Source: a virus
Lineage: Duplodnaviria; Heunggongvirae; Uroviricota; Caudoviricetes
DNA length: 5,412 bases
IMG/VR virus record: IMGVR_UViG_2703718819_000016
Reading direction: 5' to 3' (one strand)
Position numbers and translations under genes: made by a program. The notes below the pieces were generated by a model. It ran no database searches and was not told the origin of the DNA. It saw only the letters and a list, made by a program, of their open reading frames with translations. This document shows, piece by piece, positions 1-3,674 of this stretch (the first letter of the stretch is position 1; the number at the start of each line of letters is the position of its first letter).

Positions 1-642
1 CGCTTCCACGGCGTTATTGATTACGCGCTTGCTGAAAGTGGCCCTGTGCTCTGAATAGATCGCCACCATTTCGCGGCTAAGTTCCATTGTGCTGACCGGA
101 CACCATACCCCGCCGCGCCATACGTGAACGATTTCACTTTCAGGATGTACGCAAACGCCATCAAAGCGATCGGCAAGCAGCTGCGCGCGCTCACTGTCCG
201 CCATCTGCGAAAGTTGCACCTTTTGCTTTACCGGAAGCTCAATGACCAGACCATCAGAAAGATTCTGGCGCTCACGGGCCAGATATTCGCGCCAGTTCTC
301 CACCTTCTGACCGTGCATACCATCAGGGTAAAAATTTGCATCCTGTACGCCTGCCGCCGCCAGCTTCTGGCCAATCGCCTTTATCATTACTGGCGCAAGA
401 TATCCGGCCCTGAATATGCGCACGGATTTTCTGCCTTCCGGCACAATTTGCAGCTTATCCAGTTCTGATAACTGCTGCTCCCCAAGCCACACAGGAGGCT
501 CATTATCTCCGGCCATACGCGCATCATGTTCCTGCCATTGTTTCGCGTGTGCCCAGGCATCACTACCCGCAAAAATAATGACTTCTGTTCCTTTGTGTTT
601 TATGCCGCGTGACTGCTGTTTTACGTTCGGTGCCAGTTTCAT
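1..642 (-). CDS. Putative replication protein (primase-like, in the position of P4 alpha); N-terminal 214 codons only, 3' end lies beyond the window start
   Basis: Minus-strand frame is open from ATG at 642-640 to position 1 with no stop (MKLAPNVKQQSRGIKHKGTEVIIFAGSDAWAHAKQW...). SD AGGGG lies 6 nt upstream inside the preceding gene, and the ATG overlaps that gene's TGA (ATGA). Absent from the ORF track because it has no stop in the window. The function is inferred from position at the end of the early operon, not from a recognised catalytic motif. Confidence 0.6.
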   Translation of the reverse strand, partial: MKLAPNVKQQSRGIKHKGTEVIIFAGSDAWAHAKQWQEHDARMAGDNEPPVWLGEQQLSELDKLQIVPEGRKSVRIFRAGYLAPVMIKAIGQKLAAAGVQDANFYPDGMHGQKVENWREYLARERQNLSDGLVIELPVKQKVQLSQMADSERAQLLADRFDGVCVHPESEIVHVWRGGVWCPVSTMELSREMVAIYSEHRATFSKRVINNAVEA

Positions 643-1614: not shown

Positions 1615-2071
1615 AGGTTTCCCCCTGACGAATACGGGCGACAAAAATCAGATGTGCGTGCGGCAGCTGCGCGCGTGCTTCGCGCTCAGTGGCAGCCGTG
1701 ACGGTGTAAATATCAATGCTGCTGTGGTGGCACTGCATAAAGCGCCAGACAAAGTAAGGGCGTGCGGATACGGCCATGTGAAAGGCTCCCAGATGAATTT
1801 TAAGGAGTCTCGCTACTACGCTGTCAAACATGGTGGCGAGACGTAACAGGGTTGACAGACTGGTCATCTGGAAACCAGCGAGCACAAAGGCTCCCCCGTT
1901 ACGCCCCGCCATAATGCGGGTATGGGTAGGTTTACGGACACAAAAAAACCGCTTATCGGATGTGGGCGGCTGTCCGCCAGATGTATTCAGGCTGTCAAAC
2001 CCGGTCGCCATGTGGGCGACGGGGGAAGCATACAGCCCCGTGATAATTTTTTGCAAGCGGTTTTTACGCAT
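1604..2071 (-). CDS. Two-part protein (155 aa): unique N-terminal ~100 aa fused in frame to a C-terminal ~55-aa domain paralogous to the 65-aa protein upstream (FVWRF...TEREAR...ARIRQG); possibly Ash-like plus Icd-like
   Basis: ATG at 2071-2069 with SD AGGGG; track ORF 1604..2113 trimmed to this start. The C-terminus PYFVWRFMQ...TVTAATEREARAQLP...LIFVARIRQG aligns with 2064..2261. An internal ATG (MAVSARPY) retains a GGGAGCC SD homologous to the RBS of 2064..2261. The family names are from memory and unverified. Confidence 0.6.
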   Translation of the reverse strand: MRKNRLQKIITGLYASPVAHMATGFDSLNTSGGQPPTSDKRFFCVRKPTHTRIMAGRNGGAFVLAGFQMTSLSTLLRLATMFDSVVARLLKIHLGAFHMAVSARPYFVWRFMQCHHSSIDIYTVTAATEREARAQLPHAHLIFVARIRQGETYAQ

Positions 2072-2261
2072 GATGTGACCCCTGGCGAATACGGGCGGCA
2101 AATACAGCAACACAACCGGACGGGCAACGGTTACGCGCTTCGCGTTCCGTCCAGGCGGTTACGTGGATGATTTGAGATTCTCCGGCACTCAGTGCCAGAA
2201 AACGCCACACAAAGGCCGTTTGTGTGTGTACAAGGTGTGGTATATGATTTACAGCAACCAT
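2064..2261 (-). CDS. Small protein (65 aa) with FVWRF...TEREAR...ARIRQG motifs; first gene of the leftward early operon; possibly Icd-like
   Basis: ATG at 2261-2259 with strong SD (AGGAG, 6-nt spacing). It is the paralogue of the C-terminus of 1604..2071 and its stop overlaps the next start (ATGCGTAA). The Icd-like call is from memory and needs a database check. Confidence 0.65.
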   Translation of the reverse strand: MVAVNHIPHLVHTQTAFVWRFLALSAGESQIIHVTAWTEREARNRCPSGCVAVFAARIRQGSHHA

Positions 2262-2330
2262 AACGGCTCCTAGTTTACGTTGTTGGTTAGAAGCCCCGTT
2301 ACTGCTCCTACAGTGCGGGGTTTCGTCGTT
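2217..2330. repeat. Copy 1 of a ~115-bp diverged direct repeat covering the leader, RBS and first ~15 codons of the leftward operon
   Basis: Shares cgtttgtgtgtgta (2217-2230), ccataa and ttggttagaagccc (2283-2296), followed by a GC hairpin, with 2963..3080 in the same order and orientation. Confidence 0.7.
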
Positions 2331-2350
2331 TCTACACCTTGCCTTAATAA

Positions 2351-2404
2351 GGTGTTGAACACCAATTTAAATCGAGGTGTTAAACACGTCAAGTGTTGAA
2401 CACT
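2351..2404. promoter_or_regulatory. Three palindromic operator-like sites (GGTGTTGAACACC 2351-2363, GGTGTTAAACAC 2376-2387, AGTGTTGAACACT 2392-2404) overlapping divergent promoters
   Basis: Three copies of the inverted repeat GTGTT-N-AACAC lie between the leftward operon (start 2261) and the rightward RHH gene (start 2454). Candidate leftward promoter: -35 TTGACG (2392-2387), 17-bp spacer, -10 TAAATT (2369-2364). Candidate rightward promoter: -35 TTGAAC (2396-2401), -10 CATACT (2419-2424). Confidence 0.6.
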
Positions 2405-2453
2405 TATTTTTTTTCCTGCATACTGCATTTGTTTTTTATGAGGGGTGCTCAAC

Positions 2454-2633
2454 ATGGCGACAAAAGCAGTAAACGCAAAATCACAAACAGTTGCGGCAAG
2501 GGTTCCACATGAAGTTATGAACAATGTTGAGGCGGTAAAAATGCCCGGCGAAAGTACAGGGCAGTTTGTTACAGCTGCATTAAAGCGGGAAGTTGAATAC
2601 CGCCAGCGCCGCAAGACCAAAGAATCAGAATAA
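2454..2633 (+). CDS. Arc/Mnt-type ribbon-helix-helix DNA-binding protein (59 aa), candidate repressor of the adjacent operator cluster
   Basis: ATG at 2454 with SD GAGGGG 8 nt upstream (the track's GTG at 2445 sits inside the SD). The RHH pattern is QTVAARVPHEVMNNVEAVKMPGESTGQFVTAALKREV (beta strand, helix, G-x-S turn, helix). It is divergent from the operator-containing promoter region. Confidence 0.6.
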   Translation: MATKAVNAKSQTVAARVPHEVMNNVEAVKMPGESTGQFVTAALKREVEYRQRRKTKESE

Positions 2634-2690
2634 TCACCATCAGCGCCGTGGTGTGAGGAACTCCGGCGCATTGCTTTACAGGGCAGTACC

Positions 2691-2918
2691 ATGACCAACA
2701 ACACACTATCACCAATACAAGACACGCAGACGCAAGATGATGAAATCATCCGGCAAAGGCAGTCAGAAGCCTGCGCCAGACTTGAGGAAGAACTAACCAG
2801 AACAAAAATACCACCACCAGCGCCGCGCTTAGTGCCACCAGAAAAATTTGCCCTTGAAGATTTTGTCGATAAATACCCACGGCGGCTTAAATCCGGCAAA
2901 AACCGACCGCCAGGATGA
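2691..2918 (+). CDS. Hypothetical protein (75 aa): acidic, helical N-terminal half and proline-rich C-terminal half
   Basis: ATG at 2691 with a weak SD (AGGG, 8 nt). It follows the RHH gene after a 57-bp gap containing a GC hairpin (2643-2669). No recognisable domain; it uses several rare codons (AGG, AGA, CTA, ATA). Confidence 0.35.
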   Translation: MTNNTLSPIQDTQTQDDEIIRQRQSEACARLEEELTRTKIPPPAPRLVPPEKFALEDFVDKYPRRLKSGKNRPPG

Positions 2919-2962
2919 GTGCACAAAACCGAACTCTGAAACGGATTATTCCGTTTCCGGGG

Positions 2963-3080
2963 CGTTTGTGTGTGTATAAAGAGTAAGCTATGCTCTTTTA
3001 TAGCCATAATCTTTACCTCAATTAATGGTTTGGTTAGAAGCCCGTTGGTGTTCATAGCGCCGGCGGGCTTTGCTTTTTGT
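2963..3080. repeat. Copy 2 of the ~115-bp diverged direct repeat; carries a relic start (ATG 3007-3005, MAIKEHSLLFIHTQT) homologous to the N-terminus of 2064..2261
   Basis: cgtttgtgtgtgta at 2963-2976 and ttggttagaagccc at 3030-3043. The minus-strand translation from 3007 gives MAIKEHSLLFIHTQT, against MVAVNHIPHLVHTQT for the intact gene; similarity is lost beyond ~2960. Confidence 0.65.
3038..3080 (+). terminator. Hairpin (stems 3038-3044 / 3064-3070) followed by a T-rich tract; possible intrinsic terminator for the upstream plus-strand genes
   Basis: aagcccg...cgggctt stem with a 19-nt loop, then tgctttttgt. The T-run is interrupted, so strength is uncertain. Confidence 0.4.
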
Positions 3081-3089
3081 GTTGATTGT

Positions 3090-3123
3090 ATGTAATGTGT
3101 CACCACACATAAATACATTACAT
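3090..3123. promoter_or_regulatory. 9-bp inverted repeat ATGTAATGT (3090-3098) / ACATTACAT (3115-3123) flanking TGTGTCACCACACA; candidate operator of the second RHH gene
   Basis: A perfect 9-bp inverted repeat with a 16-bp spacer lies immediately upstream of the SD and start of 3138..3317. Confidence 0.5.
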
Positions 3124-3137
3124 GAGGTGTAATTAAC

Positions 3138-3317
3138 GTGTCAACACACAAAAACGAAAGGCGTGGTAATCCTCCGTTCCAGTTCCGTTTAGATCCTGAC
3201 TTACGGGAAAAGATGGAAAAGGCACAACAACATGACGGCGATGATTCTCTTGCTGCCTGGATAAAGCGAATAATCCGCAAAGAATTACAGCAACGCGGCA
3301 TAGAACCCAAAGGGTAA
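3138..3317 (+). CDS. Arc/Mnt-type ribbon-helix-helix repressor-like protein (59 aa, GTG start)
   Basis: GTG at 3138 with SD GAGGTG 7 nt upstream. PPFQFRLDPDLREKMEKAQQHDGDDSLAAWIKRIIRKEL closely follows the Arc/Mnt pattern (P-x-F-x-F-R...L-R-E-K...G-x-S...I). The translation-initiation region is homologous to that of 2454..2633. Not in the ORF track, probably because it is below the length cut-off. Confidence 0.55.
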   Translation: MSTHKNERRGNPPFQFRLDPDLREKMEKAQQHDGDDSLAAWIKRIIRKELQQRGIEPKG

Positions 3318-3412
3318 TTACATTGCCCACCAGCCTGATAGCGGCTATCATTCCCGTGCTTATGTTTGGGATCACATACACATAAGGCGCAGCAGGTTAA
3401 TTGTTCACAAGG

Positions 3413-3440
3413 GCGTTCCGGCAACGGGGCGCTTTTTGTT
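3413..3440 (+). terminator. Intrinsic terminator-like hairpin (gcgttccg-gcaa-cggggcgc) followed by TTTTTGTT
   Basis: 8-bp stem with two G-T wobble pairs and a 4-nt loop, then a T-run. It lies ~95 bp downstream of the 3138..3317 stop and between the convergent genes 3138..3317 and alpA. Confidence 0.5.
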
Positions 3441-3467
3441 ATGTTCATCGTGTTATGCCTCACACCA

Positions 3468-3674
3468 TTACGCAGCCGTTCCGCGTGCTTCCTGCTCACG
3501 TTCTTTCATCCATGCGATTACGTCTTCCTCATACCATCCGCGACGGCGTAAACCAACGCGAAAACCCTGCGGAAATTCTCCGGCGTTGATCATGCTTTGA
3601 AGCGTGCTGTCTGCCTTGATGTGGATAAGTTTTTTTACTTCCTGGCGAAAGATGACTTTTTTGATTGCTTCCAT
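3468..3674 (-). CDS. alpA: AlpA-family phage regulatory protein (helix-turn-helix; excision and transcription regulator)
   Basis: 68 aa, IFRQEVKKLIHIKADSTLQSMINAGEFPQGFRVGLRRRGWYEEDVIAWMKERE, matches the AlpA/Vis family pattern (E-V...S-x-x-T-I-x-x-x-I-x-x-G-x-F-P...W-x-x-x-E-V-x-x-W). ATG at 3674-3672 with SD AAGGT. Typical position downstream of a P4-type integrase. Confidence 0.85.
   Translation of the reverse strand: MEAIKKVIFRQEVKKLIHIKADSTLQSMINAGEFPQGFRVGLRRRGWYEEDVIAWMKEREQEARGTAA

Follow-up and report, generated by a model that had tools for sequence, protein, structure and literature searches.

Introduction

The immI region of bacteriophage P22 combines two ribbon-helix-helix (RHH) repressors, Mnt and Arc, with the divergent promoters P_ant and P_mnt and the antisense RNA sar, and the right operator (OR) of bacteriophage lambda places three operators for CI and Cro between P_RM and P_R. 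According to published accounts of the satellite P4, its early leftward promoter P_LE is constitutive and the CI RNA confers immunity (PMC10111431). On Staphylococcus aureus pathogenicity islands (SaPIs) and other Gram-positive phage-inducible chromosomal islands (PICIs), which are integrase-bearing satellites, the gene for the master repressor Stl (Rpr) faces the replication operon over divergent promoters, and whether Gram-negative PICIs possess a global repressor has been left open (PMC6092414). Here we analyze a 5,412-nucleotide stretch of DNA, IMG/VR record IMGVR_UViG_2703718819_000016 (hereafter the window), which matches P4-related integrative islands of Escherichia coli. Three short inverted repeats, Boxes 1 to 3, lie upstream of a small rightward gene, ylcI, and the evidence presented below argues that they are operators for its product, a predicted RHH protein. 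We propose, with good computational support for the operator core, that an uncharacterized RHH family supplies a modular, specificity-coded repressor on top of RNA immunity, in satellite islands that are very common in E. coli.

The closest functional analogue of the ylcI region would be P22 immI. Both arrangements have a small RHH repressor encoded divergently from the operon it controls or is proposed to control, operators that overlap the core promoter, and a short antisense RNA, here a predicted one (Table 1), over the translation start of the first controlled gene. They differ in that YlcI has no sequence relationship to Arc or Mnt detectable in family or PDB searches, that the ylcI region has three separate sites of 11-13 bp rather than the single 17-21 bp operator of P22, and that the operon consists of Icd-like genes, a C4 RNA and a primase gene instead of ant, on a satellite island instead of a phage.

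By descent, the closest relative is the left-operon control region of P4, which lacks the ylcI module. The two have in common a C4/CI RNA, its isrK/a1b1 target, a P_LE-like promoter, Icd/kil-like genes, alpA/vis and a long reading frame that sets out from alpA. In P4, however, vis and P_LE are separated by about 60 bp, with no gene or boxes between them, whereas the window has an insert of about 1.1 kb that carries three plus-strand genes and a putatively repressible promoter and lies antisense to an eta-like frame.

Other known systems resemble the locus in fewer respects. The initial annotation had likened it to lambda OR, and the likeness extends to the placement of three sites between divergent promoters that overlap different subsets of them. 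It does not extend to the proteins, as YlcI is of the RHH rather than the helix-turn-helix type and no counterpart of Cro competing for the boxes was found, the first leftward gene being Icd-like by family search, not a DNA-binding regulator, and no other protein co-varying with the boxes. Also unlike lambda OR, most classes of related loci have asymmetric boxes in direct orientation, and the center-to-center spacing of 25 and 16 bp in the window (22-25 and 45 bp in relatives) does not suggest pairwise cooperativity of the lambda type. Stl of SaPIs and PICIs shares the position of a repressor gene facing a replication operon on a satellite island, but no homology to YlcI is evident and Stl is a positional analogue only. 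Among plasmid RHH regulators, which include omega of pSM19035 and CopG of pMV158, omega needs contiguous 7-bp heptads, unlike the boxes, which are 11-13 bp long and 3-34 bp apart.

Probable operator boxes and predicted divergent promoters

The three palindromes reported in the initial annotation were recovered by their coordinates and by a core search of the window (Table 1). Their GTGTT-N-AACAC cores occupy 2352-2362, 2377-2387 and 2393-2403. With at most one mismatch allowed, the core GTGTTNAACAC has exactly three matches in the 5412 bases on both strands, all of them boxes, against a chance expectation of 0.20 from shuffled sequences, and none of 200 shuffles reached three. Because of this result, and because the same layout recurs in 22 of 26 related loci, the boxes are non-random. 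At the ylcI start codon, which it overlaps, a further sequence (GGTGCTCAACATG, 2444-2456) resembles a box with two mismatches in the core (2445-2455); it is not preserved in locus L003, the closest relative, and is probably there by chance. The boxes do fall between a leftward and a rightward gene, as had been described, but the interval is not theirs alone, since a plus-strand RNA motif also lies within it.

Table 1. Coordinates of the boxes, predicted promoters, genes and RNA elements in the window
Feature	Position	Strand	Remarks
Box 1 (O1)	2351-2363, center 2357		GGTGTTGAACACC, perfect palindrome
Box 2 (O2)	2376-2388, center 2382		GGTGTTAAACACG
Box 3 (O3)	2392-2404, center 2398		AGTGTTGAACACT
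Predicted leftward promoter	2364-2392	-	-35 TTGACG 2392-2387, 17-nt spacer, -10 TAAATT 2369-2364
Predicted ylcI promoter	2396-2424	+	-35 TTGAAC 2396-2401, 17-nt spacer, -10 CATACT 2419-2424; start expected near 2431
ylcI-like gene	2454-2633	+	59 aa; YlcI/YnfO family; predicted ribbon-helix-helix fold; proposed box reader
Candidate promoter of RNA motif	2220-2248	+	Predicted; -35 TTGTGT 2220-2225, -10 TATGAT 2243-2248; start expected near 2255
Two-hairpin RNA motif with U-rich tail	2253-2334	+	Candidate cis-antisense RNA, about 80 nt, against ribosome-binding site and start codon of first leftward gene
First leftward gene, Icd-like	2064-2261	-	65 aa; NF033153, 64.8 bits; chimera relative to L001
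P4 P_LE-like promoter	2027-2056	-	Predicted; TTGCAA 2056-2051, 18 nt, TATGCT 2032-2027
c4-a1b1/isrK-like target and terminator element, seqA analogue	1984-2033	-	RF03163, 46.8 bits; c4-a1b1/isrK-like element 2033-1942
C4/P4 CI-type antisense immunity RNA	1829-1916	-	RF01695, 72.6 bits (gathering score 45)
Eta-like reading frame	2270-3499	-	409 codons; starts inside 3' end of alpA; antisense to RHH2, orf75, ylcI and boxes
Second copy of RNA motif	2999-3081	+	Upstream of RHH2; model R1, 61.4 bits, E = 7.7e-12; outside training set
RHH2, second small RHH gene, Arc-like	3138-3317	+	PHROG 228 (Arc-like repressor), E = 3.4e-6; NF041551, E = 0.0029
alpA/vis-like gene	3468-3674	-	Upstream of and overlapping start of long frame

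The boxes are placed in register with two predicted promoters that point away from each other. A scan with a sigma-70-like consensus found a single leftward promoter. Its predicted start, near 2357, is covered by Box 1, which lies directly downstream of the -10 hexamer; Box 2 fills the spacer and abuts or overlaps the -35 hexamer, and Box 3 abuts the far side of that hexamer and contains the predicted -35 hexamer of the rightward promoter. The latter, which would serve ylcI, was read from the sequence by eye and is below the threshold of the scan. Across 18 aligned loci representing all classes, the TCAA of the leftward -35 hexamer (as read on the other strand) is invariant while the neighboring boxes vary, and the ylcI -10 hexamer is kept as TATACT, the window having CATACT. 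The suggestion that promoter elements of both directions overlap the boxes is therefore upheld at the level of prediction, by the scan on the leftward side and by our own reading together with the conserved -10 hexamer on the rightward side. Sites in a promoter spacer or over a start site are classic positions for repression, and since the boxes occupy both in the leftward promoter, we infer that this promoter is repressed and that ylcI is negatively autoregulated.

The YlcI protein and its co-variation with the boxes

The product of the rightward gene scores 59.6 bits on NCBIfam NF041551 (cutoff 30) over residues 9-50, its E. coli homologue is annotated by RefSeq as 'YlcI/YnfO family protein', and it matches PHROG 949, a family of no known function. 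The structure model shows a strand-helix-helix unit of about 45 residues with a ribbon-helix-helix arrangement, in support of the earlier assignment of this protein to the RHH class, and its best structural matches are mostly RHH antitoxins. No Pfam family scored above cutoff for any of 31 YlcI members, for which weak matches to PSK_trans_fac and CB_ParB_C were the only ones returned, and the sequence has no match in PDB. Literature searches on YnfO, YlcI and DUF3950 found no functional study, and searches for an RHH repressor of P4 or PICIs found nothing relevant. Homologues were also sought by tblastn in 50,697 phage genomes; none was found, and the idea that a helper phage might carry a close homologue was dropped for that reason.

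A scan using one genome per species yielded 31 ylcI loci, which span many genera including Pectobacterium, Edwardsiella, Kosakonia, Yokenella, Serratia, Xenorhabdus, Proteus and Klebsiella. When the most repeated 9-mer upstream of ylcI was determined de novo, it was present in three copies, at about -101, -76 and -31 (or -61) from the ATG, in 22 of the 26 usable loci. In 25 related loci, drawn from many Enterobacterales, about three boxes are found at equivalent positions. The copy near -101 is the equivalent of Box 1 in the 22 loci, and the equivalent of Box 2, near -76, is always followed by (G/T/C)TCAA. The third box is more variable in position. It stands at -61, as Box 3 does, only in the class with QT[VLI]AA at YlcI residues 11-15, which includes the window, L003 and L004 (it is degenerate in L002); in the other classes it directly follows the ylcI -10 hexamer at about -31, a site at which the box has decayed in the window and in L003. 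Boxes are confined to the region upstream of ylcI, and in 15 related loci, examined over 6-17 kb, there are none elsewhere.

From locus to locus the box keeps its outer bases, (G)TG...CA(C), while the central 5 bp or so vary. Within a locus all copies change together, and where the boxes of a class are asymmetric, all those of one locus have the same orientation. These changes track YlcI residues 11-15. Proteins with QT[VLI]AA at these positions accompany the box center TTGAA, those with [KR]KLEA accompany TCAGC, QSLKS goes with TGG[CT]C, QKLQA or QKIQA with GGA[CT]TCC, KRFDV with TCGGA and QKMSA with GGCACCC; with two further classes, there are about nine specificities in total. Among 300 pairs of loci, 97% of those sharing a box core agree at both residue 12 and residue 14, compared with 2% of those with different cores. 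Residues 12 and 14, which thus co-vary with the center of the box, belong to the predicted DNA-reading strand.

Neighboring sequences are inherited together, a concern that is reduced by pairs in which flank and box are uncoupled. In eight pairs the left flanks are 90% or more identical although the box cores are not the same, and every one of these pairs also has different residues 12 and 14. Conversely, 37 pairs share a core despite left flanks less than 70% identical; in those of the 37 that were listed, residues 12 and 14 are the same, with the exception of one pairing with the degenerate box of L011. On this comparative evidence, linkage alone does not explain the association between box and protein.

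The window itself is one half of such a recombinant pair. The other is L001, the island of E. coli S19-651, which adjoins tRNA-Pro. The two are about 100% identical at 2198-2297 and 95-100% identical at 2607-2766, and their RHH2 and AlpA proteins are 100% and 96% identical, but between 2298 and 2606 identity drops to just 45-80% and the loci belong to different classes, YlcI having QTVAA at residues 11-15 in the window and KKLEA in L001. Within the exchanged stretch lie the boxes, both predicted promoters and the first 50 residues of YlcI. Because the flanks are nearly identical and the stretch between them is divergent, the unit of exchange is, as far as alignment can tell, the boxes together with the part of YlcI predicted to read DNA, which recalls the immunity regions of temperate phages. 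The RHH model, the overlap with promoters, the class-by-class co-variation and the joint exchange of boxes and protein all favor the original proposal that the boxes are operators of the adjacent small protein.

Predicted RNA-based control and the antisense frame

Downstream of the box promoter, the leftward operon carries elements related to the RNA immunity of P4. The C4 RNA of the window scores well above the gathering score (Table 1). The match to c4-a1b1 is marginal at 46.8 bits against a gathering score of 46.7, and that to isrK, at 35.2 bits, is below its gathering score; the same models gave 74.9 bits for the CI RNA of P4 (C4) and 60.8 bits for its seqA region (isrK). The P_LE-like promoter, which is below the scan threshold, directly follows the stop codon of the first Icd-like gene, and its expected start near 2020 is the first position of the isrK/seqA-like match. 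P_LE of P4 (TTGCCT, 18 nt, TATAGT) is placed likewise, upstream of an isrK match that begins at 8692. A second Icd-like domain is encoded on the minus strand beyond the C4 RNA. With a C4 RNA above the gathering score and a target element that has a P_LE-like promoter upstream of it, the window appears to possess RNA immunity of the P4 type. The contrast drawn in the initial annotation, between a protein-based switch here and RNA-based immunity in P4, was mistaken: the C4 RNA and its seqA-type target are in the same leftward operon, so that the YlcI layer would be added to RNA immunity and would not replace it. The leftward replication operon had also been named as the target of the boxes, and a box-overlapped promoter does point toward it; this promoter is, however, about 330 nt upstream of the P_LE-like promoter and cannot simply be equated with the promoter of that operon.

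A C4 RNA as a constant companion of ylcI was ruled out, as none was detected at the gathering threshold within 3 kb in 20 related ylcI loci. L001, for its part, has two tandem C4-icd cassettes, with C4 RNAs at 8081-8168 and 7603-7690 (region 7603-8266, against 2175-2188 in the window). Judged by these 20 loci and by the paired cassettes of L001, the YlcI and C4 systems are separable. Where L001 has an extra cassette of about 480 bp, the window carries a single cassette together with a chimeric Icd-like open reading frame (ORF), a difference consistent with a deletion of that length, or a duplication, between repeated cassettes.

The RNA motif between the boxes and the first leftward gene is a candidate for a further layer. 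Hairpin 1 has the complement of the start codon in its stem and the complement of the Shine-Dalgarno sequence in its loop, and hairpin 2 is GC-rich and followed by a U-rich tail, in the manner of a terminator. A -10-like TAnnnT at the right distance is invariant in 22 of 22 aligned loci. In an alignment of 22 sequences, 95.1% of the cells that should pair do so, compared with 36-42% when the partners are slid, and 17 of 25 pairs show compensatory changes. The strand can also be assigned. There are 76 G-U cells, which would be A-C mismatches on the other strand and thus fit the plus strand only, and in 25 of 25 loci the plus strand folds into two hairpins that are 5-23 kcal/mol more stable than the minus-strand fold. 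Both observations led us to reject the reading of the hairpin at 2290-2325 as a structure in the 5' untranslated region of the leftward mRNA. A covariance model, R1, matches every ylcI locus (L014 at 2799-2880, for example); it has no match in P4, and no Rfam family was found for 2253-2334. We regard the motif as a candidate cis-antisense RNA of about 80 nt that would block translation of the first leftward gene.

The whole ylcI module lies antisense to a long minus-strand frame. This frame ends at a TAG codon 9 nt ahead of the ATG at 2261, in the Shine-Dalgarno region of the first leftward gene, and its Cys- and Ser-rich product looks non-functional. A frame in the same phase relative to ylcI is open for 90-414 codons in 23 loci (8421-9635 on the minus strand in L001; L002 to L029), and it continues without a break, and in frame, into the first leftward gene in 12 of 22 loci. 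The eta gene of P4 (8168-8812) likewise begins inside vis, and it contains P_LE, seqA, CI and the kil/Icd domain. Translation of eta is reportedly coupled to that of the alpA homologue and keeps late transcripts from terminating (PMC10111431). By analogy, we hypothesize that the long frame is an eta counterpart and has stayed open to let late transcripts through the ylcI module.

Model and alternative explanations

We consider it likely that YlcI binds the boxes. Dimers would insert the N-terminal beta-ribbon into the major groove at the center of each 11-13 bp box. There the variable bases, about 5 bp, would be read by the likewise variable residues 12 and 14, and the invariant outer TG...CA by the invariant S10 and R16 and the N-terminal arm. 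Since Boxes 1 and 2 are on the start site and spacer of the leftward promoter, bound YlcI should shut off leftward transcription, both of the Icd-like gene and by read-through into the C4-icd-primase operon. With Box 3 on the -35 hexamer of ylcI (its counterpart is at +1 in most relatives), YlcI bound there should limit its own synthesis. Our confidence that the effect is repression is somewhat lower than our confidence in binding. Boxes and YlcI would together form an exchangeable specificity module comparable to an immunity region. In the quiescent island, YlcI would hold all three boxes, silencing the leftward promoter and restricting its own synthesis, the antisense RNA would block translation of leftward messages that escape, and the C4/CI RNA would terminate transcripts from the downstream P_LE-like promoter.

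Several points weigh against this model. A box of 11-13 bp is longer than the 5-8 bp usually read by a single RHH dimer. All of the promoters considered here are predictions, with the rightward one below threshold. Part of the association between box and protein must reflect co-inheritance of neighbors, a concern that the recombinant pairs reduce without removing. Finally, the existence of a separate P_LE-like promoter downstream means that repression at the boxes alone may not silence the replication operon.

The last point is also the basis of the alternative that fares best, in which YlcI uses the boxes only to regulate its own gene, as typical RHH antitoxins or small autoregulators do, and the leftward operon is run by the antisense and C4/CI RNAs. 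The antitoxins among the structural matches of YlcI are in keeping with this idea, as is the presence of both the P_LE-like promoter and the C4 RNA. It does not account for the fact that in every class two of the three boxes are in the core of the leftward promoter and one is on that of ylcI. Moreover, most ylcI loci have no C4 RNA within 3 kb, and there the box promoter is probably the main early leftward promoter. Nor is there a conserved partner gene downstream, for orf75 and RHH2 follow ylcI in L001 alone among 32 loci. This lack of conservation also led us to reject a type II toxin-antitoxin module with an RHH antitoxin. Overall, we think it unlikely that YlcI is confined to autoregulation.

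A second alternative is that some factor other than YlcI reads the boxes, for instance a host or helper-phage protein, AlpA, RHH2 or the Icd-like protein, and that YlcI is merely linked to them. The PHROG families that match the Icd-like protein are labeled 'transcriptional repressor', a label that presumably goes back to an old protein annotation of P4 cI. That region of P4 encodes the CI RNA, according to both the P4 annotation and the match to the C4 model. As all three boxes change in concert between classes, their reader must be specific to the element; the near-identity of RHH2 and AlpA in the window and L001 despite their different boxes speaks against these two proteins, RHH2 in particular being no determinant of box specificity, and L008 and L023 have different boxes although their Icd-like proteins are about 90% identical. 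A reader other than YlcI thus seems quite unlikely.

The boxes could instead be iterons of a replication origin used by the primase/helicase of the island. The 8-bp type I repeat of the P4 origin and crr is TGTTCACC, to which the GTTGAACACC contained in the box bears a loose resemblance. In the P4 annotation, short repeats bound by the alpha protein lie near the equivalent region. Arguing against such a role are the copy number of only three, the fixed position relative to the -35 and -10 hexamers, the co-variation with YlcI, the ends of the exchanged module (2298 and 2606), which are a long way from the primase gene, and the confinement of the boxes to one region of each locus. Given where the boxes are and what they vary with, we rejected the iteron reading, which we take to be very improbable. 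A functionless chance cluster, for which nothing speaks beyond the general frequency of short palindromes, is refuted by the shuffling result and by the recurrence of the three-box layout across many genera, and its probability is negligible.

How repression by YlcI would be relieved is a matter on which our confidence is low. Because ylcI and its operators are antisense within the alpA-coupled, eta-like frame, late transcription from upstream might flip the switch. On induction, transcripts begun in the alpA region would proceed leftward across ylcI, be translated as the eta-like frame and continue into the replication genes; if this transcription were activated by a helper, ylcI would be silenced by interference and the repressed promoter would be read across. 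We speculate, and only tentatively, that YlcI-type RHH proteins are the missing master repressors of Gram-negative PICIs and P4-like satellites, that the interchangeable protein-box modules, which fall into at least nine classes, define immunity groups, and that helper-activated late transcription through ylcI is what turns the switch. Should YlcI be a repressor that acts at the promoter and has swappable specificity, the uncharacterized family NF041551/PHROG 949 would acquire a function and a simple, testable recognition code, two residues against five base pairs, and common islands would be under three stacked layers of control, a protein repressor, a cis-antisense RNA and the C4/CI RNA. Such an arrangement would bear on what keeps satellites silent, how related ones are excluded and how a helper phage rouses them.

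Neighboring genes and distribution

Two further plus-strand genes, orf75 and RHH2, follow ylcI in the window. No family match was found for orf75 in Pfam, NCBIfam or PHROG. Upstream of RHH2, at 3082-3137, the inverted repeat ATGTAATGT...ACATTACAT (3090-3123) surrounds TGTGTCACCACACA, and facing the gene is a remnant of a leftward Icd-like start (MAIKEHSLLFIHTQT, ATG at 3008). With its own copy of the RNA motif (Table 1) and this inverted repeat, RHH2 resembles a paralogous, compacted version of the ylcI module. The starts of ylcI, orf75 and RHH2 (2454, 2691 and 3138) are all in one reading phase (coordinate modulo 3 equal to 0), which may be linked to the open minus-strand frame opposite them. 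The alpA/vis-like gene matches Pfam Phage_AlpA with E = 0.003, below cutoff, and PHROG 66/2790, described as excisionase and transcriptional regulator.

The gene order of L001 begins with an integrase gene, a small ORF, an AlpA-like gene, two small plus-strand genes and the gene for the 'YlcI/YnfO family protein'; on the divergent side, an ash pseudogene is followed by Icd-like genes, DUF4222, primase, SSB and PerC. Islands of this kind are widespread in E. coli, strain STEC17-190 (NZ_CP075649) being one carrier. The 429 bases around the boxes have matches in 1676 of 5426 complete genomes, and in 592 of the 1676 at least 80% of the query is covered. The Rfam int-alpA RNA motif RF02996, which was not detected in the window at E <= 1, is above the gathering score in four related loci, where it lies about 2.9 kb to the right of ylcI and always on the minus strand (L002, 5853-5921; L006, 5893-5961; L007, 5966-6038; L018, 5519-5587).

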